Source: an uncultured virus (IMG/VR IMGVR_UViG_2671180823_000007)
Taxonomy: Duplodnaviria; Heunggongvirae; Uroviricota; Caudoviricetes
Direction: 5' to 3' (one strand)
Virus record (IMG/VR): IMGVR_UViG_2671180823_000007
DNA length: 23,243 bases
Shown here: positions 2,800 through 12,054 of the stretch, in pieces
Layout of the letters: the number at the start of each line of letters is the position of its first letter
How positions within the stretch are numbered: position 1 is the first letter of the stretch
Notes under the pieces: generated by a model
Seen by the model: only the letters and a program-made list of their open reading frames with translations
What the model was told of the DNA's origin: nothing
The model's database searches: none
Position numbers and translations under genes: made by a program

Positions 2800-3125
2800 T
2801 CGCCCGGCACCTCGGTCCAGCTCGACGCCCAATGCGACATGACCTTCCACGACATAGGGTGCTGTCGCGCGCAATAACGGGCAGTCCCCTCACTGCCGAT
2901 GGTCACCTCGTCATCGCCGATCATCTGCGCACCCCATACACGCGTGATTCCCCCGAAGGCTTTGTCTATCTCAGCGGACTGGTGTGCGGTCGCTTCTCCT
3001 ACGTTCCCGAATGACTCTTTGCATCCCGTGCAGATGAATTGATCAAGGTACGCAATCCGGTGCTCGCTCAAGACTTCCGACATGAGCTGCTGTGCTTCGC
3101 TTTTCGCAGGACGGCGGTCAGACAC
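2796..3125 (-). CDS. Hypothetical protein with CxxC...H zinc-finger-like motif
   Basis: 109 aa; CTGCKESFGNVGEATAH. Confidence 0.6.
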   Translation of the reverse strand: MSDRRPAKSEAQQLMSEVLSEHRIAYLDQFICTGCKESFGNVGEATAHQSAEIDKAFGGITRVWGAQMIGDDEVTIGSEGTARYCARQHPMSWKVMSHWASSWTEVPGE

Positions 3126-4309: not shown

Positions 4310-4779
4310 GCCAGCTCCTCGCTTGTGAAGATCAGAGGTGCGAGCTCGCTCCACGCTTGACCAAGGTCACGACGCAGGAGCTCGATAGACCAATTGGCCG
4401 ACCAGTCCCGTATCGGTTTCAAAGCCTCACGGGCAGTGGCGTTCATTGCGTCGGTCATCGTCCGGTAGTACGCGGGACCGCCGTCTTCTTCCACCCATGC
4501 CCGTTGCGTGGCTTTGATAGCAGGGTCAGACATGGGGTTCTCCAGCGTTCCAGCCCTTGAGGCCTCCAGCGCGGCATTAAGCCGTTTGACAGCAGACCTT
4601 TTCGCGGCCTCGGTTGGTAGTGACTCGTACCGCTTTAGCCATCTAGCGCCTGCCTCCTCCGCCCCTATGGCATCGGCCAGCTCAGCATCGGTGCGTTGCT
4701 CGGGGTCTGGGAAACATTCAAGTTCACGAGCCCGAGCTACGAGCTTGTCTCGGAATGCACTCGATTCCGTCATCGCCAT
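4306..4779 (-). CDS. Hypothetical alpha-helical protein
   Basis: 157-aa ORF overlapping the end of the nucleotidyltransferase gene. Confidence 0.6.
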   Translation of the reverse strand: MAMTESSAFRDKLVARARELECFPDPEQRTDAELADAIGAEEAGARWLKRYESLPTEAAKRSAVKRLNAALEASRAGTLENPMSDPAIKATQRAWVEEDGGPAYYRTMTDAMNATAREALKPIRDWSANWSIELLRRDLGQAWSELAPLIFTSEELA

Positions 4780-5627
4780 CTACTTCGACTGACGGCGATG
4801 TTGTGTGCGTTTCGGATCGCGCCGGAGAGTCGGGCTTCGGACCTGGTACCGCGAGTACGCCAGTGCCGCTGGTACATATCAACCAACCACGTGTTGATCC
4901 GAACCCAGTCCGGGGTATCCGGCAGAGGCTCGGTCGAGATGAAGTGCTCCAGACTCCAGGTCAGATCCGCGAGCCAGCTCTTCACCTCGGGGAGCGAGGT
5001 CTCGCCGCGCCGAACGCGGAGCAGCGCATCACGATGGGCCTTGACCATCGGCAGGTGCAGCTTCCTCTCCGTGACGAGCTGGATACCCTGCATGCCGAGG
5101 CGCAGGGCGTGATACGCGTACTTGGTGTCGAAACCGTACTGTTCGATGAGTTCGGGCCGGTTGGTGTGCCGGTGATGGGTACCTTCGAGTCCTTCACGCT
5201 GAGAGTTCAAGTAGCTCAAGAACTTCTGTCCAGCCTGCGTGGTGACGAACATCTCCGAGGCTGCCTGAAGTTCGGCGCCGAGTTGGCTTTTCACCGTCAG
5301 CTCATTGTCGGGTATCCAAAGCATCAGCAGCACTGAGGGATTGCCATTGGCGGCCAGCCGTGTCCACTTCCGCAGGCTGTAGACACACAGATCGAGGTCG
5401 CCGGGGCCGGAGCGGGCGCCGTCCGGTTGGGTGCGGTACATGTACTGCTCGAACTTCTCCAAACCGATTACGGCCTCGGGAGGTTCGATGCAGATGCCCA
5501 TTTCGTCGCGGTCGTCGGCGCCGGTCGTGACACCATGCAGGCCGGAGCCGACCTGCCCACGAAGAATCGTGTTCTCGTCCGCGATAGCGCGGTGCCGCTC
5601 CGTGCCGTGGCGTGCTTCTGTACTCAC
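4770..5627 (-). CDS. DNA polymerase beta-superfamily nucleotidyltransferase (Nuc-transf/RlaP-like)
   Basis: hGS-x-LHG-x5-DxD motif (VGSGLHGVTTGADDRDEMG), DLDLCVYSLRKW, NGNPS and YGFDTKYAYHALRL match this family. Confidence 0.85.
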   Translation of the reverse strand: MSTEARHGTERHRAIADENTILRGQVGSGLHGVTTGADDRDEMGICIEPPEAVIGLEKFEQYMYRTQPDGARSGPGDLDLCVYSLRKWTRLAANGNPSVLLMLWIPDNELTVKSQLGAELQAASEMFVTTQAGQKFLSYLNSQREGLEGTHHRHTNRPELIEQYGFDTKYAYHALRLGMQGIQLVTERKLHLPMVKAHRDALLRVRRGETSLPEVKSWLADLTWSLEHFISTEPLPDTPDWVRINTWLVDMYQRHWRTRGTRSEARLSGAIRNAHNIAVSRSRWR

Positions 5628-5794: not shown

Positions 5795-6012
5795 CGGGAG
5801 GTGGCCGTTCTACCGTCGATGATTTTCTGGATGAGTTGGGGGCTGCACTTCACGGCGGTGGCGAGAGTGGCGTGGGTCCACTTCTCGCGCTCGTTCGTCC
5901 AGAGTTCCCGTACGAGCCGGTCGCGCTGGCTTCGGTGCTGGCTGGCGGAGTCGCGCTCTTCCCCGGCCAGCCGGTGGTGCTCGCGGGCTTGCTGTGCCCT
6001 CGGGTCCATCAA
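5791..6012 (-). CDS. Small helix-turn-helix DNA-binding protein
   Basis: C-terminal WTHATLATAVKCSPQLIQKII HTH pattern after a long helix. Confidence 0.7.
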   Translation of the reverse strand: MMDPRAQQAREHHRLAGEERDSASQHRSQRDRLVRELWTNEREKWTHATLATAVKCSPQLIQKIIDGRTATSR

Positions 6013-6443
6013 CGTCCCCTGATGTCCACGCGGCGGCGGGATATCTTCTCGATCGCGGTGATGGCTTCCTCTCCGGGGTCTTCGATCTCGAAGATGCCGT
6101 GCTCTGCTGCGTCACGGCCTGACTCGAACAGCGGGACAGGGCTCACATATTCGAATGCGGCCTGTACGTCTTCGGGAGACAGCGCGCCCGTGGCCGCGCC
6201 GATGCGTATCGCAAGTAGTTCCTCGCCGCCGTGGCAGCCGACCCAGCCCGCACAAAGCCGGGCCGCTGCGTCGGCGGCGTCCGTCTGGTGGCACAGGAAC
6301 AGGCCGGGCGGCTGCTCCGAGGTGGGGCCGTCGTAGGCGATGAGTTTCTGATACTCGGTGGCATGCCACACGCCGCTGGGTACGTCCTCCCGGTAGGGGC
6401 ACGACGCGCAGGGGCGCGGCGCGGGGCCGCCGACCCTGCCCAT
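6009..6443 (-). CDS. DUF6283-family Cys/His metal-binding protein
   Basis: PCASCPYR-DVPSGVW...EY-KL..YD...FLCHQ...LCAGW motifs; starts 2 nt after the Ro60 stop. Confidence 0.75.
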   Translation of the reverse strand: MGRVGGPAPRPCASCPYREDVPSGVWHATEYQKLIAYDGPTSEQPPGLFLCHQTDAADAAARLCAGWVGCHGGEELLAIRIGAATGALSPEDVQAAFEYVSPVPLFESGRDAAEHGIFEIEDPGEEAITAIEKISRRRVDIRGR

Positions 6444-6445
6444 CG

Positions 6446-8146
6446 TTACAGGTCACCTCGGGCGAAGTCCGAGATGAGCTGCGGTACAGCGCTATCGAAC
6501 CCGGACACGTCGAGCTGGCGCGGGTCCGAAGGATCTGCGATGGTCTGCCGACCGCCGGTCATCGCGACCACCATCAGGCTGGTGTCCAGGCTGAGCTTGT
6601 TCCGGTACTCGGTGAGAGCCTGGTGCGGGTGGATACCCCCGTACCAGGTCTCGTTGTCGGTGAGGATCACGATGGCGTCGTAGGGGCGAAGCTGCGCCTT
6701 CGCCCAGATCATGGGGAGCGCGCAGTCGGTAGCGCCCATAGGGAGGCCTGCGGTGTATCGGCACACGTCATCGAGGCGGCGGCGCGGCGTGATGTCCAAC
6801 TCCGTGATCCCTGATGAGCGGAAGCTCCCACCGGCCCCGGCGGTGAACCCGATGATGTCGTGGTTGGGCTCCACGTTGGCGGTCACCAGTGCGAGCGCGG
6901 CGGCGGCCTCGCGGCACGTCAGCGGCATACCGGAGATCGCGGCGCTCATGGAGCCGGAGATGTCCAGTGCCAGCAGGGTCCGCTTACCCGAGGGCTCGAC
7001 GGCGCCGTAGGCGTTGTAGAACGCGGCGTCGAGCGCGTCAACGATGCGGCGGTTCGGAGTCCAGGTGGACTCACCGCGCGCAGAACGCCCAGAGGCATAG
7101 GTGCGCTGTGCGACAAGGACATTGATCGGGTGGACGCGGCCCTTTCGTAGCCGGTCTGTGTCCTGGAGCTGCGCGGAGACCCGGCTGCCGAGCTGACCGT
7201 TCAGCACGCCGAGGCGGGTTAGGCGGGGCAGCTGCCGCATGAGGGCGGTCTGCGGGAGGCCGTGCTCGATCAGCGCCTCCCAGATCGCAGGCTCGGTGAG
7301 GGCCTTGTCGGGGAACGCCTCCCACGGTAGGCCGTTGCCCCGGCGGATGATCGCCAGCCACTCGTTGACGGTGGTGGCACGCTGCGCGGCTTCGTAGTCC
7401 GCGATGATGGCAAGCGGGTGCCCGTCAGCCAGTTCCACATTGGGCAGCTTCGGTAGAGCGGGGTTGCGCTCTCCGGCCTTGAGCTGCTCCGGAGTGAGGA
7501 GCGGCTGCTTCCAGTTGTAGTCGTTGAGCCCCTTGCCGACAGCCCAGTTGAACGCCATGCGGCGTGCGGGGTCGCTGGTGGCGGGGCCGCTGAGCCGGAG
7601 CATGTCGCGGTGGGTCCAGCCGTCACGCTGCCGGTACTTGACCAGCTGGTAGGCGAGCCGGTCCACGGGCTTGTCCAGGTACCAGCTGGAGACGGCGCGC
7701 TTCATCGCCGGTCCCCAGCCCCGGAACTGCTCCATGTACTTGGTGAACAGGTACAGGTGGGTGGCGGTGCGCGCGACTCGGGGCAGTGCGGCGGCGGCGG
7801 CACGGCGGCCTTCCACGTTCTCGGAGGCCGAAGCGATAGCGAGCGCGAACAGGGCCGGGTTCTGCTTGGGGGCGCGTCCGGCCTCGGAGACCTCAACGAT
7901 CTTCTGCACGAGGGTGACGGGATCGGTTGCGGCGAGCCGGATCACGACATCGGCGGCGTCGCGGGTGAGGTCCTCGGCGGAGGTGTAGTAGGTGCCGCCG
8001 GTCGTGCCGAGGGTCAGGAATCGGTGGAGCCGGGTCCAGTCGTCGGCCTGGAAGGTGTAGCCCCCGGCGGCGTTCTTGACCTGGCGCGGGTCCGCCTTCT
8101 GGGCCTGAGGGGTGCGCCGCGTGCTGATCGAGGATAGAACGTCCAC
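6446..8146 (-). CDS. rsr: Ro60 / TROVE-vWA RNA-binding protein (Y RNA partner)
   Basis: NAAGGY, RLHRFLTLGT-GGTYY, YQLVKYRQRDGWTHRDMLRL, MIDAS-type LALDISGSM, GATDCALPM, ILTDNETW, LDVSGFDS; AAGGAG RBS before GTG. Confidence 0.96.
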   Translation of the reverse strand: MDVLSSISTRRTPQAQKADPRQVKNAAGGYTFQADDWTRLHRFLTLGTTGGTYYTSAEDLTRDAADVVIRLAATDPVTLVQKIVEVSEAGRAPKQNPALFALAIASASENVEGRRAAAAALPRVARTATHLYLFTKYMEQFRGWGPAMKRAVSSWYLDKPVDRLAYQLVKYRQRDGWTHRDMLRLSGPATSDPARRMAFNWAVGKGLNDYNWKQPLLTPEQLKAGERNPALPKLPNVELADGHPLAIIADYEAAQRATTVNEWLAIIRRGNGLPWEAFPDKALTEPAIWEALIEHGLPQTALMRQLPRLTRLGVLNGQLGSRVSAQLQDTDRLRKGRVHPINVLVAQRTYASGRSARGESTWTPNRRIVDALDAAFYNAYGAVEPSGKRTLLALDISGSMSAAISGMPLTCREAAAALALVTANVEPNHDIIGFTAGAGGSFRSSGITELDITPRRRLDDVCRYTAGLPMGATDCALPMIWAKAQLRPYDAIVILTDNETWYGGIHPHQALTEYRNKLSLDTSLMVVAMTGGRQTIADPSDPRQLDVSGFDSAVPQLISDFARGDL

Positions 8147-8170
8147 CGTGAGCTCCTTGCTGGGTTAGGT

Positions 8171-8247
8171 GGCGCGGGCGTGTGAGTGACCGCCGGGGTT
8201 CATCCAGTTTCGAGGTTGGGGTAACCGACCGTCGTCCTGCTCGCGCC
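8171..8247 (-). ncRNA. Y RNA-like unit 1 (77 nt, scaffold only, no tRNA-like domain)
   Basis: Closing stem GGCGCG/CGCGCC; shared motifs GAGCAGGACG..GGUCGGUUAC and CGGUCA..ACACGCCC; no GUUCRA T-loop. Confidence 0.75.
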
Positions 8248-8264
8248 AAAAGGGGGTTCGGGGT

Positions 8265-8385
8265 GATGTGGGCGTGTATGTGCTGACCGGGATTTCGCTT
8301 TTACACCCGCACCGAGGCGCGAGCGACAGGGGTCGAACCTGCATTACCAATTGAGTGATAACCGACCGAGCGTCCTGCTCACATC
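8265..8385 (-). ncRNA. YrlA-like Y RNA unit 2 (121 nt; T-arm and closed acceptor-like stem, D-arm lost)
   Basis: Closing stem GAUGUG/CACAUC; T-arm GCAGG-UUCGACC-CCUGU; hairpin CGCUCGCGC-CUCG-GUGCGGGUG, then UA with no D-arm. Confidence 0.8.
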
Positions 8386-8414
8386 GAAAAGCTATGGAGT
8401 TATTGATGATTCGC

Positions 8415-8569
8415 GTAGGTGGTGCGGGCGTGTGATTGCTGACCGGTGTTTTAGGTGCTCTACCAAGCTGAGCTATACGGACGCACTACGCGCCCGCAGC
8501 TGGATTTGAACCAGCGACCACCCGCTCCAGATGCGATAACCGATCCTGCGTCCTGCTCACACCATCTAC
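8415..8569 (-). ncRNA. YrlA-like Y RNA unit 3 (155 nt; permuted T-arm, acceptor, D-arm)
   Basis: T-arm GCUGG-UUCAAAU-CCAGC; stem UGCGGGCGC/GCGUCCGUA; D-arm UAGCUCAGCUUGGUAGAGC; closing stem GUAGAUGGUGUG/CGCACCACCUAC. Confidence 0.88.
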
Positions 8570-8583
8570 TACGAAGCCTTGGG

Positions 8584-8722
8584 GATGATGCGGGCGTGTG
8601 TGTGCTGACCGGGGGTAAGCGCTCTACCGACTGAGCTACAACCACTTTCGCGGCTGACGGGACTCGAACCCGCGACCTCTCCATTAGAAGTGGTAACCGA
8701 CCTGCGTCCTGCTCGCATCATC
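8584..8722 (-). ncRNA. YrlA-like Y RNA unit 4 (139 nt; permuted T-arm, acceptor, D-arm)
   Basis: GAGGUC-GCGGG-UUCGAGU-CCCGU T-arm; 7-bp CAGCCGC-GAAA-GUGGUUG acceptor-like hairpin; D-arm UAGCUCAGUCGGUAGAGCG; closing stem GAUGAUGCG/CGCAUCAUC. Confidence 0.9.
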
Positions 8723-8740
8723 AATGTGAAGTTGTATCCG

Positions 8741-8915
8741 GGATGGCGTGGGCGTGTGAGGTGCTTACCGGCGTTGATCTTGGATCAATGCATTCGGCCG
8801 CTCTGCCACGTTCCGCCCGATGAAAGCCCGAAGCTCTTTCAAGCAGCCCGGCGGGATTCGAACCCGCGATCTGATGATTTTCAGATAACCGACTCGCGTC
8901 CTGCTCACGCCATCC
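8741..8915 (-). ncRNA. YrlA-like Y RNA unit 5 (175 nt; class II tRNA-like)
   Basis: T-arm GCGGG-UUCGAAU-CCCGC; D-arm UGGCAGAGCGGCCGAAUGCA; extended stem capped by cUUCGg; closing stem GGAUGGCGUG/CACGCCAUCC. Confidence 0.85.
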
Positions 8916-8939
8916 ATGTTTTTGTTGACTACGCCAAGA

Positions 8940-8970
8940 ACTATACCTCAGTAATGCCTGTTCAGGGCAT
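8940..8970 (-). promoter_or_regulatory. Putative promoter (-10 TATAGT) with inverted repeat, upstream of the Y RNA array
   Basis: Minus-strand TATAGT at 8945-8940, about 25 nt before unit 5; ATGCC-N7-GGCAT at 8954-8970; A-tract upstream; no clear -35. Confidence 0.5.
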
Positions 8971-9069
8971 ATTTTTTGAGGAAATGTTGATTCGCTGGAA
9001 GGTGACTCCCGTACCGGGGAAAGTATGCCGTCGAGGCCCTCGACCTGGCTACCGAATATCGGTGCCAGC

Positions 9070-9819
9070 TCAGTGAGGTACTTCGTCTAGGCCGTTCTCG
9101 CGGAGGGTCGCGGTGACCGCCTCCACGACGCGCGTAGCGGGCCAGTCGTCGGGCGCGGAGATCAGGGTGCCCCCGGCCAGCTCGGTCTTTGTGAGAAGGT
9201 CAACGAGATGGTCAATCTCGCCGACTTCCTTGCTGATCCAGGTGCGGTATCCGGCACCGATCTTCCAATTGTTGCGCCGAGCAAGGCGCATTGCCGCAAG
9301 ATCAGTGAGGGTGAAAGTGGCGGGCTGCCAGGTTGAAGCCACAGCGGCGCACACCTTGTCGCCAACCTCGCTAGAGACGCCGCCCGGCGCGGTCTCGGTC
9401 AGGTCGATGTGGAGGTTGTGCGCCGGCAGTCTCCCGCCGAGACCGATAGACCCCGCACCGATGAAGACCTTGGCAGTGATGGCAGGACCGACGCCCTTCA
9501 GGACGATCGAGTACCCCTCCCTGGGGAGAGCATCGCCGCTGGCGCCGTCAGGGAGTGCTTCGCGCACCGGGCAGCTCCGAACGATGTCGGCCAATGCCTC
9601 GCTGGGCCCAGCCCAAGTCTCCCAGTGGTGCCCCTTCGGGATGTCCCACTGCGCGATTCCCAGATCCGTTCCTAGCTGCGTCAGCAGCGCATCGGTGCGC
9701 GCCGCGATCCATTCGGGTGATTCGCCGGTCGCGACCCAGAACGCGTTCACGAACGACTCTCTCGCCCAGACGGGAGACGCGTTGGTTGGCCCGTTCACAG
9801 CATCGAATTCTACGGTCAT
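9070..9819 (-). CDS. Immunity protein of the polymorphic toxin (Imm52-like)
   Basis: ATGA-coupled to the toxin stop; WKIGAGYRTWI...TELAGGTLI C-terminal pattern resembles REase-toxin immunity proteins. Confidence 0.75.
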   Translation of the reverse strand: MTVEFDAVNGPTNASPVWARESFVNAFWVATGESPEWIAARTDALLTQLGTDLGIAQWDIPKGHHWETWAGPSEALADIVRSCPVREALPDGASGDALPREGYSIVLKGVGPAITAKVFIGAGSIGLGGRLPAHNLHIDLTETAPGGVSSEVGDKVCAAVASTWQPATFTLTDLAAMRLARRNNWKIGAGYRTWISKEVGEIDHLVDLLTKTELAGGTLISAPDDWPATRVVEAVTATLRENGLDEVPH

Positions 9820-11723
9820 GGCTTCTCCGGGGTGTAGATCACGTCAACGTCGAGACCGCGGCCCTCTAGCAGATTCCGAATTATCGCTGCGCTCTGTGGG
9901 TTAGCGACGTGCCACTCAAGGCCAGTCTCAGGGGGCAGGACGCGTATCTGTCGCTGAGCCTCTCTGACGAGCTCGTTCTGGATGTTCTCAGTCCACGGCG
10001 CATCTGGACTCTTGATCAGGGGCGTGTAGTTGTGCTTTGCGTCTAGGAACACCTGCTGATTGCCCCGTTCGATGGGTCCGCTGTCGAATCTGACCACCTC
10101 GCCGGTCTCGGGGTTGGTCATGACGTACTCGGGGATGCGTCCGTCAGGTGTTCGTTCGATACCCGTGATCTGCTCCTGGAAGCCCATCCAGGGCTTGTCG
10201 GGACCACGGTTGACATGCTCCCAACCTGGCGTGGGGTCACCCTTGGTCCAGGTTGCCTCTGGGGTGTGGGGCGGCCACCCACCCGGATGGTGCGGATCGC
10301 CCGACGTGTAGTGCTGCCCCACGCTGGGGTCGAACTGATCGGGTGTCGGTAGTTGGTGCTGGGTTGGGGGTGGGGAGTGGTCGGCGACCGTGGGCGGTGG
10401 ATGGTCTACAACCGGCGCGGGGTGGGTTGCGTCACTCGGGTCTGCGGTGTGCGCTGCGGGTGCTGGTGTGTCATGGAGTGCGCCGGGGCTCGGAAGGTCC
10501 GGGTGCGCGCCCAGGCGTGCAGCGGCGGCTTCTTCGAGTCCAGCGCGTGGCAACAGGCCTTCGGGACCGCCTGCCATTAGCGCCCCGCCATCGACCAGTT
10601 TTTCCCCGAAGTATTGGCCGGGGTTTTCGATGTTGTGCTTGATGCCTTCGGCGATATCGGCGCCCGGCGGGGTGGTCATGTGGTGCTTAAAGGACTCCCA
10701 TTCTCGCCTACCGGCCTCTTCATTGGCCTCCCAAAAACCCTTGTCCCCCAACCCAAGACGGTCCCGCAGATCCGTGAACGGCGCAACCAACTTATCGACG
10801 CCCTTGTCAATGCCCTCGGAAATATCCGTCTTGAAACGCTCGGCAGCCGATGGTTTGTGCTCCTCCGGTGGCTTGTCGTTGCGATTCAGGTAGGTGACGC
10901 TTTCGCCCAGGCCACCCACCTTGGTCTTGTCGATAGTGTCCTTAGCGAACGGGCCGTACTGCGGGGCATTCGGATCGGCAGCAGCGGTGGCAGCGGTCGG
11001 GGTTGTCGCGGGATTCTTGATGTGCTCCAGCTTGTCGCCGAGCGTCCCGGCACCAGGATCGATGGAGGCCGGATCGGTGGCCTTGGGGTACCAGTCCTTG
11101 TAGAAGTTCGCGGGCTGGGCGCTCGGGTCGCCGGGCTTCGGGGTCGCGGCGTCGCGCAGGGCCTTGCGCCCGTCCACAAGCGCCGTTTTGGGGTTGATGC
11201 AGCCGGTGATCGTTTGGGCGGTGGCGTCGGCCTGGGTTTTGAGGGTTTGACAGCCCTTCTCCCACTTGGCGACATACTCTTCGATCTGCCGTTGGATGTC
11301 GGCGACGTGGGCGCGGTTTCGGGCTATCGAGTCATCGCTTTCACCCTCGGCGGGGTGGTAGTCCATCTTGTAGTCCTGAGCGATGGAGACGCCCTGGTCC
11401 TTGTGCGCCAGCACGCTCTCGATGAGGCGTTGGCCGTTGACCAGGGGATCGACCACCTCGTATTGGATGGTGGCGGCAACGAGTTTTCCGCCGTCTTCGG
11501 CGGTGTCGTGGGTGTTATCCGAGCCGTGGCAATCAGTGGATGCAGTGTCATAGGCGGCGTTCGAGGTGCGCCCGGTCCATTCGGTGCCATCGGGAGCCCC
11601 GACCCACCGTTTGTATTCGTCGTAGATTTCCTTGAACTGCCGGGTCTGTGGAAGCCAGGTATCCACCACCGCCATATAGTCATTGGCCTTCTTGGCCATG
11701 AACTCATCCAGTGGCGTCACCAC
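9816..11723 (-). CDS. Type VII-secreted polymorphic toxin with C-terminal Tox-REase-5 nuclease domain
   Basis: N-terminal helical region with EWTG motif; Pro/His-rich linker; C-terminal FQEQITG...VRFDS...FLDAKHNY...EAQRQ...LEWHV; start set at GTG 11723 after AGGGG. Confidence 0.85.
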   Translation of the reverse strand: MVTPLDEFMAKKANDYMAVVDTWLPQTRQFKEIYDEYKRWVGAPDGTEWTGRTSNAAYDTASTDCHGSDNTHDTAEDGGKLVAATIQYEVVDPLVNGQRLIESVLAHKDQGVSIAQDYKMDYHPAEGESDDSIARNRAHVADIQRQIEEYVAKWEKGCQTLKTQADATAQTITGCINPKTALVDGRKALRDAATPKPGDPSAQPANFYKDWYPKATDPASIDPGAGTLGDKLEHIKNPATTPTAATAAADPNAPQYGPFAKDTIDKTKVGGLGESVTYLNRNDKPPEEHKPSAAERFKTDISEGIDKGVDKLVAPFTDLRDRLGLGDKGFWEANEEAGRREWESFKHHMTTPPGADIAEGIKHNIENPGQYFGEKLVDGGALMAGGPEGLLPRAGLEEAAAARLGAHPDLPSPGALHDTPAPAAHTADPSDATHPAPVVDHPPPTVADHSPPPTQHQLPTPDQFDPSVGQHYTSGDPHHPGGWPPHTPEATWTKGDPTPGWEHVNRGPDKPWMGFQEQITGIERTPDGRIPEYVMTNPETGEVVRFDSGPIERGNQQVFLDAKHNYTPLIKSPDAPWTENIQNELVREAQRQIRVLPPETGLEWHVANPQSAAIIRNLLEGRGLDVDVIYTPEKP

Positions 11724-11733
11724 GCGCGTGCCC

Positions 11734-12054
11734 CTATGCCCGCTTCGGTGGCTGATAGATGCTGGGCAGATTGCCGTACCCGGCCGCCAGTGAACTCTCC
11801 GTGATCTTGAAAGCTTGCTGGGCCTCATCAGCGAAATCAGCGATCGTATTCAACCGCGCTGCCCCGATCCGCTTCACATCCGCGATGGCCTTGGACACTC
11901 CATACAGCGCCGCCAAACCTGGATCAGCACCAGCCGGTGGCGAGACACTGGCCGCCGTGCTCTGCGTCAGCTGACCGGCGAGCGTCCTCAGATGCGGACC
12001 GAGCTTCCCCAAGGCCGCAAGATCAAACTTGAGAACGTTCTCATCGCCCGACAT
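11734..12054 (-). CDS. WXG100/ESX-like small secretion partner
   Basis: 106-aa helical protein (LKFDLAALGKLG...AQQAFKITESSLA) just upstream of the toxin; GAAGGGGG RBS. Confidence 0.7.
   Translation of the reverse strand: MSGDENVLKFDLAALGKLGPHLRTLAGQLTQSTAASVSPPAGADPGLAALYGVSKAIADVKRIGAARLNTIADFADEAQQAFKITESSLAAGYGNLPSIYQPPKRA

Follow-up and report, generated by a model that had tools for sequence, protein, structure and literature searches.

What are the small RNA genes that stand five in a row ahead of the Ro60 gene of a mycobacterial prophage, and what could so many of them be for? The question arises from a stretch of 23,243 nucleotides (nt) of an uncultured member of the Caudoviricetes (IMG/VR record IMGVR_UViG_2671180823_000007), hereafter the window, in which a first-pass annotation made from the letters alone had noticed an array of five Y-RNA-like genes. 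The provirus record that holds the window is 74.4 kb long and 97% complete and represents a temperate phage of Mycobacterium. Bacterial Y RNAs of the YrlA class carry a tRNA-like module with V, T, AS, and D arms, and the YrlB RNA of Mycobacterium smegmatis has a T arm only (Chen et al. 2014, RNA 20:1715, PMC4201824). Delimitation by script placed five units, U1 to U5 in the order of transcription, head to tail and directly upstream of Ro60, as follows.

8741 to 8915, minus strand: U1, 175 nt; scaffold, hairpin, T arm, long closed acceptor-like stem, D arm, and an extra hairpin.
8584 to 8722, minus strand: U2, 139 nt; canonical YrlA-type unit with a 7-base-pair (bp) acceptor-like stem closed by GAAA.
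8415 to 8569 (core helix 8418 to 8566), minus strand: U3, 155 nt; second YrlA-type unit, with a 9-bp acceptor-like stem.
8265 to 8385, minus strand: U4, 121 nt; scaffold, hairpin, T arm, and 9-bp hairpin, without a D arm; YrlB-like.
8171 to 8247, minus strand: U5, 77 nt; scaffold alone with a short interior, without a tRNA-like element.
6446 to 8146, minus strand: Ro60/Rsr gene, 566 amino acids (aa), with a GTG start at 8146.

The linkers measure 18, 14, 29, and 17 nt from U1 to U5, and all five units lie 24 to 769 nt upstream of Ro60 on the same strand, that is, within 4 kb of it. These are the unit lengths and the range of linkers (14 to 29 nt) that the first-pass annotation had given, and its picture of Y-RNA-like genes with a constant scaffold and differing interiors upstream of a phage Ro60 was borne out as well. 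The open reading frame (ORF) at 6446 to 8146 matched Pfam TROVE (6.8e-50) and vWA_Ro60 (3.5e-56) and also PHROG 850, an RNA-binding protein family (8.7e-100). Its match to NCBIfam Rsr (466.7 bits, under the equivalog cut-off of 900) was the sole NCBIfam match among the neighbourhood proteins. We conclude that the five units are, with high likelihood, tandem YrlA/YrlB-class bacterial Y RNA genes belonging to the Ro60 gene that follows them. Their identity as Y RNAs is drawn from the adjacency to Ro60, the covariation of the scaffold, YrlA as the best Rfam match, and the likeness to probes used for the M. smegmatis RNAs, among other evidence.

The shared scaffold frames each unit in the same way. 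A unit begins with the 5′ strand of a closing stem, followed by A, GCAGGACG, 3 to 5 nt, UCGGUUAYC, and the variable interior, and it ends with CCGG(U/C)..(G)CA.., CACACGCCC, and the 3′ strand of the closing stem. Every one of the five has a closing stem and an A/C mismatch, a G-C step of two pairs, an internal loop that contains GCAGGACG, and a UCGG/CCGG helix, after which comes GGUUAYC. The pattern CAGGACGN{3,5}TCGGTTA occurs five times in the window, always within the array, against an expectation of 0.00 from 100 shuffles. An alignment was made of 20 units, comprising the five of the window, ten of related proviruses, three of LinStu, and two of Myrna, the latter two being lytic phages. In this alignment, 96.0% of 301 cells (18 scaffold pairs) are paired versus 83.7% in column shuffles, none of which reached the observed value in 500 attempts. 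When the partner strand was slid by 1 to 3 columns, pairing dropped to 34.2 to 43.9%. Double-sided changes were found in 12 of the 18 pairs; the inner UCGG/CCGG helix adds no covariation evidence because it is nearly invariant. An independent run of RNAalifold on 21 YrlA-type units from phages and chromosomes predicted 29 pairs, 20 of them with compensatory changes. These pairs make up the closing stem and the inner helix, a T arm of 5 bp with a loop of 7 nt, a closed acceptor-like stem of 7 bp, and a D arm of 4 bp. The four closing stems that the first-pass annotation had quoted as covarying (among them GGCGCG/CGCGCC and GAUGUG/CACAUC) are present as written, that of U3 with one A/C mismatch, and their covariation is confirmed. 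The ends of the units therefore pair into a stem that encloses the module, as in the YrlA class, and this stem and the G-C step are present in the minimum free energy (MFE) folds of all five.

The interiors differ in how much of a tRNA-like module they hold. We scored the units with R1, a covariance model built from the 20-unit alignment and the scaffold structure and tuned to the actinobacterial scaffold. In U1 to U3, the module is circularly permuted, and its elements follow in the order of hairpin, T arm, closed acceptor-like stem, and D arm. U2 scored highest (133.6 bits); its MFE fold yields all four elements with a z score of −3.20, and 1 of 200 shuffles folded as well. U3 reached 111.8 bits (z −1.61; 13 of 200 shuffles as good). 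U1 reached 101.2 bits and an MFE of −75.1 kcal/mol (z −3.81; 0 of 200). It is a variant of the module, with a closed acceptor-like stem of about 17 to 19 bp and a D arm, read by eye, of a 3-bp stem and an 11-nt loop; long acceptor-like stems have been published for some YrlA RNAs. Thus, the T arm, acceptor-like stem, and D arm that mark the YrlA module are found in U2 and U3 and, as a variant, in U1. U4 (86.2 bits; z −0.47; 61 of 200) has no D arm, its MFE fold showing T-arm-like and 9-bp hairpins. U5 (61.9 bits; z −1.03; 25 of 200) has no arms, and its closing stem, G-C pair step, and inner helix all form in the MFE fold. Both are YrlB-like rather than YrlA: YrlB is a shorter RNA between YrlA and rsr, and in position and content U4 would fit this type, whereas U5, which has no T arm, would fit it in part. 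The phrase "tRNA-mimic cargo," applied to the whole array in the first-pass annotation, hence fits three to four units, since T and D arms are combined only in U1 to U3; U4 qualifies in part by its T arm, and U5 has no tRNA-like part.

Several results weigh against this assignment. At gathering thresholds, Rfam returned no match in the window, the gathering score of YrlA (RF02553) being 69, and U1, U4, and U5 lacked any YrlA match in E-value mode too. The 5′ motif GCAGGACG, present in all five units, is two positions off the published GNCGAAN0-1G, the proposed point of contact with Rsr; at this place, a chromosomal mycobacterial YrlA (L016, a locus of the two-unit form) reads GCCGGACG, and LinStu and Myrna read GCCGA. 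The folding energies of U3, U4, and U5 are no better than those of shuffled sequences, and U1 and U2 alone are clearly better. A sigma-70 consensus scan of 6300 to 9900 revealed no full promoter, nor was a minus-strand terminator found; of the two terminator-like sites, both lie on the plus strand, and 1.8 were expected. Finally, the RNA-Seq contigs that cover parts of the array (described below) give no information on strand or ends and could stem from DNA, one of the runs being labelled "probably DNA."

On the other side of the balance, the best matches of the region in the E-value mode of Rfam were to YrlA, on U3 (37.9 bits, E 2e-06, model positions 1 to 114) and on U2 (34.2 bits). U1 was matched there by a T-arm fragment of tmRNA alone. 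The search with the Rfam YrlA model that had been proposed as a check therefore gave sub-threshold support for two units and none for the other three.

The closest described counterpart is the pair of RNAs of M. smegmatis. YrlA and YrlB of this bacterium lie upstream of Rsr, are bound by it, and are processed from a single precursor; YrlB sits between YrlA and Rsr and accumulates separately as an Rsr-bound RNA, according to Chen et al. (PMC4201824). When compared by eye, the complement of the M. smegmatis YrlA-5′ probe matched U2 at 21 of 23 positions, and the complement of the 3′ probe includes ACACGCCCACAUCACC, the sequence in which U4 likewise ends on its 3′ side. In both systems, the stem comes after a 3′ CACACGCCC, and GGUUACC leads into a CACUUCUAAUGG hairpin; both also share the same-strand location upstream of Rsr and the succession of a tRNA-like unit and a shorter T-arm-only unit. 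The acceptor-like stem of M. smegmatis YrlA has 7 bp, the reported reason for its cleavage by RNase P and the addition of CCA (PMC4201824), and this length is kept in U2, its closest counterpart here. The M. smegmatis locus differs in holding two chromosomal units with shown expression and binding, whereas the five prophage units described here are known from sequence. It also lacks equivalents of the large U1, with its long closed stem and 3-bp D stem, and of the T-arm-less U5 at the end.

Could the units instead be decayed remnants of tRNA genes or tRNA dimers, without function? Their T- and D-arm sequences are tRNA-like, the Rfam tRNA model scored 25.3 bits across U2/U3 (gathering 29), Y-like units occur inside phage tRNA arrays, and an origin of YrlA from dimeric tRNA has been proposed in print. 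But ARAGORN found no tRNA gene in the window, every helix has been kept by compensatory changes, the scaffolds are 100% conserved while linkers drift, and units stand beside Ro60 in all 80 of the actinobacterial loci surveyed below. Covariation and scaffold conservation rule this explanation out for practical purposes, and we return to the units as Y RNA genes.

How unusual is a set of five? Searched at E≤0.01, the whole 74-kb provirus gave exactly the five units with R1; the window held one weak extra match elsewhere (17.1 bits, E 0.066). Five units each were found in five close proviruses (L004 to L008) and six each in the Mycobacterium abscessus prophages prophiT37-1 and prophiGD43A-5, which belong to Cluster MabK as defined by Hatfull's group. 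Neither "Ro-like" nor "Y RNA" occurs in the main texts of that group's two prophage papers; "Ro protein" is absent from the first main text and "Ro60" from the second. IMG/VR and metagenome contigs, counted without de-replication, added at least four more arrays of six units, one of seven, and a further one of six that lies on a 492-kb contig. The seven-unit array (L166, 1004 to 2051) is the largest in the samples and has its extra unit at 1321 to 1466. Among 80 viral loci listed by a 14-base pattern, six had two or five exact matches, and R1 was run on those; all six hold arrays, a minimum for the list, as the 74 single-match loci lay outside the R1 search. Of 80 metagenome loci fetched by a 17-base pattern, at least two hold R1 units and 78 do not.

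Other actinophages were counted with R1 within 3 kb of Ro60 at E≤0.01, with these numbers of units.

LinStu: 3
Myrna: 2 (five matches in the whole genome)
Forza: 3
GMA2: 3
Cece: 4
Beuffert: 2
Faust: 2
Yaboi: 0

For chromosomal loci, we took the best 80 of 295 actinobacterial Ro60 relatives from one-genome-per-species contigs, with 3-kb flanks. R1 made 213 matches at E≤0.01, with one match in 5 loci, two in 36, three in 20, and four in 19; no locus had zero or five or more. These counts include a few matches on the other strand or 1.5 to 2.8 kb away, and in some loci array gaps of about 100 nt may conceal a divergent unit missed by the model. In six loci (L034, L038, L039, L043, L055, and L029, from Promicromonospora and others), pairs of R1 matches lie on the opposite strand, 1.5 to 2.8 kb off, and possibly represent another Y RNA cluster or another locus of the Ro60 type. 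Since two to four units were found in 75 of the 80 loci, tandem sets are the norm next to actinobacterial Ro60.

Same-strand YrlA near Ro60 was reported for 254 bacteria and 22 phages by Chen et al. (2014, PMC4201824). The most YrlA RNAs per Ro60 in their Table S1 is four, in Chondromyces apiculatus, Hahella chejuensis, and Neisseria elongata, and the phage maximum in Table S2 is three, in CcrColossus, with one per mycobacteriophage. The statement of the first-pass annotation that such RNAs come generally in ones or twos is not supported by Table S1 or by the 80 loci. It had also proposed a count of copies with a covariance model incorporating the five units: in the samples searched with R1, sets of five to seven units occur only in this prophage lineage, which is Cluster MabK-like, and in 0 of the 80 actinobacterial loci. 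The M. abscessus M93 entry of Table S1 has a Ro of 567 aa and two putative YrlA genes at distances of 271 and 435 nt from it; in the window, the distances from the 566-aa Ro60 are 271 nt for U3 and 437 nt for U2. The matching spacing and Ro length indicate that two of five units of the same locus type were tabulated in 2014, and the M93 entry is very probably a prophage locus of the type described here. The tabulated units are only those with both arms, U1, U4, and U5 being left out, and the table entry itself does not note a prophage context. Both the kind of RNA and its tandem layout are known, and the array does not reveal a new kind of system.

Within the lineage, interiors turn over. Overall identity of the array among the six close proviruses is 94%, and the 5′ scaffolds of U1, U2, U4, and U5 are 100% identical, with linkers down to 62%. 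The U3 interior, in contrast to its scaffolds at 84 to 97% and its flanks at 84 to 100%, is 41% identical to that of the window in L006 and 77% in L005, and the U5 interior is 50% identical in L007. Compensatory substitutions were seen in the acceptor-like stems of U1 and U2 in L007 and L008. Clustering of the interiors of 11 arrays showed a conserved order: a first unit that belongs to one of two types, then YrlA-type units, two or three in number, in some arrays one further type, the U4 type (B), and the U5 type (C) as the last unit. The U4 and U5 types are kept in all 11. The interior of the extra unit in L166 is 77% identical to that of U3 in the window. In L006, the replaced U3 interior (2620 to 2706) has no counterpart in the other arrays compared, and its only match is a Y-like unit of Streptomyces phage Faust (L214, 2171 to 2243; 77% over 75 nt). 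Interiors have thus been exchanged or differentially lost on a fixed scaffold, which is the best evidence for modularity, and the set of this lineage has expanded to five to seven units by gain, loss, and exchange of middle units.

Such exchange bears on the proposal of the first-pass annotation that the array is a modular library of Ro60-loaded tRNA mimics, serving as decoys for host tRNA-targeting nucleases or toxins or as enzyme adaptors in phage counter-defence. Interiors do differ on constant scaffolds, both between units and between near-identical proviruses; array size ranges from five to seven within the lineage, and unit types are common to different array types. The phage is temperate, its relatives bear toxin-antitoxin and polymorphic-toxin cassettes, and the genes downstream include RlaP, of a family associated with RNA repair. 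On the 5′ side of the T arm is a hairpin that resembles an anticodon arm; in both prophiGD43A-5 (L009) and L166, ARAGORN reads unit 2 by threading as tRNA-Thr(UGU). However, the modules have no true anticodon arm in the tRNA position, where the scaffold stands instead, and their acceptor end is closed. The most conserved unit types, those like U4 and U5, are the least tRNA-like, and PADLOC had no match on Ro60, DUF6283, or RlaP. Moreover, sets of the same kind, with one to four units, accompany the chromosomal rsr genes in 80 of 80 actinobacteria, which suggests a housekeeping rather than an anti-defence origin. We therefore regard the library proposal as distinctly unlikely and keep to the reading of the units as Ro60-associated Y RNA genes.

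Comparison with better-studied systems places these Y RNA genes among several Ro60 partners. The Cluster C mycobacteriophages, Bxz1, ET08, and LinStu among them, likewise have a phage Ro60 with same-strand upstream YrlA and the same scaffold logic. They differ in the motif (GCCGA rather than GCAGGA), in the 3′ strand (CCAUGUCU), and in being lytic myoviruses, whereas the phage here is temperate. One YrlA per phage has been published for them (Chen et al. 2014), whereas R1 finds three adjacent scaffold-bearing units in LinStu and two in Myrna. The rsr-yrlBA-rtcBA locus of Salmonella Typhimurium, from which a YrlA crystal structure is available, resembles the array in its tRNA-shaped effector module with a closed acceptor stem and no anticodon loop and in the RNA-repair genes close by (Wang et al. 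2018, bioRxiv 10.1101/312249). There, according to the same report, the RNAs are encoded 3′ of rsr, with the motif GNCGAA and an acceptor-like stem of 6 bp. The Salmonella neighbours are RtcB and RtcA, whereas RlaP and DUF6283 take their place here and no RNA ligase was found in the window. Thermus phage phiLo encodes a Ro60 with two Y-like RNAs, Yrl1 and Yrl2, directly upstream; its Ro60 binds both and forms a RYPER-like complex with host PNPase (NAR 2025, PMC12135203). Unlike the present units, these are simple stem-bulge-stem RNAs with a CGAA motif, in a phage of a distant host, and tRNA-like modules are not mentioned in the sections of that report cited here. In Deinococcus radiodurans, four small RNAs (a to d), the Yrn1/Yrn2 system, lie upstream of rsr on the same strand and are described as bound and stabilised by Rsr, but they belong to a separate lineage, with a metazoan-like binding helix and another order of T- and D-like arms. 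PNPase is reported as a Ro60 partner in Deinococcus and in Salmonella, as well as with the Ro60 of phiLo.

For what lies beyond a covarying scaffold next to Ro60, we draw on the M. smegmatis, Salmonella, Deinococcus, and Thermus-phage systems. By analogy with them, a promoter upstream of U1 would drive transcription of the array, either together with the Ro60 mRNA or shortly ahead of it, and the transcript would be cut into five separate RNAs. Docking through the scaffold would place each RNA on the outside of the Ro60 ring, and Ro60 would stabilise it. The variable module may then gate the ring or tether it to a partner, such as PNPase or tRNA-recognising enzymes like RNase P, CCA-adding enzyme, TruB, and DusA, which are reported to act on YrlA (PMC4201824). 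We propose that the different modules would thereby give five different Ro60 particles. U2 is likely to be cut by RNase P and tailed with CCA because its acceptor-like stem has 7 bp, as in M. smegmatis YrlA.

Two short elements flank the array.

8940 to 8945, minus strand: −10-like hexamer TATAGT, 25 nt upstream of U1 and invariant in six close proviruses.
8153 to 8158, minus strand: Shine-Dalgarno-like AAGGAG of Ro60, 6 nt ahead of the GTG start.

TATAGT is the sole candidate for a single promoter of the array; GGTATAG also stands ahead of the arrays in prophiT37-1 and L166. Just upstream of U1 and antisense to the array, a plus-strand terminator-like hairpin was noted at 8954 to 8980, where ATGCCTGTTCAGGGCAT is followed by ATTTTTTGAG. 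Contigs of two wastewater RNA-Seq libraries contain exact 150-nt pieces of the array, at 8260 to 8409 (U4 and its upstream linker), 8427 to 8576 (U3), 8460 to 8609 (the U2/U3 junction), and 8740 to 8889 (U1). Depth was zero on 8000 to 8258, which includes the first 113 nt past U5 into Ro60, and on 8925 to 9100. This pattern hints weakly at stable small RNAs or a precursor, of which it is as expected.

The short distance between U5 and Ro60 raises another explanation for part of the array and above all for U5, namely, that it is a structured cis leader of the Ro60 mRNA rather than a free RNA, through which Ro60 would bind its own 5′ untranslated region and set translation or stability. Between the end of U5 and the start codon are 24 nt, and AAGGAG follows U5 by 12 nt. 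Many chromosomal loci also have a short unit ending about 18 to 40 nt before the Ro60 match, which starts at 3001 (unit ends at 2983 in L015, 2978 in L013, 2977 in L018, 2976 in L020, and 2975 in L017). Yet the centroid fold of U5 plus leader leaves AAGGAG free of pairing, the stretch gives no better a fold than its shuffles (z +0.44), and YrlB of M. smegmatis, as reported, accumulates as a separate Rsr-bound RNA (PMC4201824). A cis leader is accordingly very improbable, and we treat U5 as a Y RNA gene like the others.

The long ORFs of the window are nearly all on the minus strand, and two of those following the array encode neighbours of interest.

6009 to 6443, minus strand: DUF6283 gene, directly 3′ of Ro60 (Pfam DUF6283, 6.3e-38; PHROG 18249).
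4770 to 5627, minus strand: nucleotidyltransferase gene of the RNA-repair-associated RlaP family (Pfam RlaP, 2.3e-35; PHROG 388 nucleotidyltransferase, 3.1e-64).

As neighbours, DUF6283 and RlaP fit the published link between Ro60 and RNA repair; NCBIfam gave nothing for either protein. Upstream of the array, a 670-aa ORF (9816 to 11828, minus strand) has a weak C-terminal match to a restriction-endonuclease fold (Pfam Tox-REase-5, 23.7 bits with a cut-off of 25; PADLOC PDC-M17A, 1.1e-09, also weak and C-terminal). The 249-aa ORF that follows it (9070 to 9819, minus strand) is without a family match.

The survey also brought to light several annotations that overlap Y-like units. In the two GenBank relatives, no unit is annotated as a Y RNA. 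GenBank gene 51 of prophiGD43A-5 (1750 to 1828) is a tRNA-Thr (tgt), called by ARAGORN as well, and overlaps the 5′ half of unit 2 (R1 1753 to 1890); in L166, ARAGORN likewise places a tRNA-Thr at 1153 to 1231, overlapping unit 2. Here, ARAGORN uses the closing stem and scaffold for the acceptor and D arm and takes the hairpin that precedes the T arm for an anticodon arm. Both calls are probably artefacts. Such a mis-call would explain why prophiGD43A-5 has a single tRNA in an mBio 2021 table and its near-twin prophiGD43B-2 none. In LinStu (L010), gp230 (2291 to 2464, 57 codons) overlaps Y units b (2187 to 2338) and c (2362 to 2445) and is probably not a gene.

Y-like units were also found among phage tRNA genes. 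Myrna (L215) holds units with the full scaffold inside its tRNA array (NC_011273.1, 92300 to 95600), about 36 kb from Ro60, at the following R1 positions.

95147 to 95287: Y-like unit
92691 to 92824: Y-like unit
94668 to 94800: Y-like unit

One unit of this tRNA array (80.9 bits) overlaps the annotated tRNA-Asp gene 166, one fills an unannotated gap of 139 nt, and one weak match falls on "tRNA Sup TTA." In Gordonia phage Forza (L012; 5233 to 5372 and 5033 to 5157) and in GMA2 (L210; 5179 to 5401), Y-like units lie downstream of Ro60, between tRNA genes, a location that fits the published tRNA-dimer origin of YrlA.

What, then, could the array mean for the phage and its hosts? The findings new here are modest: three unannotated unit types, sets of five to seven units in one temperate-phage lineage, and the turnover of middle interiors. 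One reading of that turnover is that the middle of the array is a hot spot of cassette exchange, whose modules each engage a different, fast-evolving host tRNA-binding factor as an RNA counter-defence repertoire; we think this unlikely, with a small chance of being right. If it were true, five to seven Ro60-docked tRNA mimics would be swapped among near-identical prophages in the service of counter-defence and not of plain RNA quality control, and their targets would be, for example, toxins or defence enzymes acting on the tRNA elbow or the acceptor end. The scaffold model R1 recovers units missed by Rfam and could be used to clean the annotation of actinophages and actinobacteria. The largest sets in our samples are on temperate phages of the M. 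abscessus group, and their fixed scaffolds with changing middle interiors offer naturally varied material for finding out what bacterial Y RNA effector modules bind.

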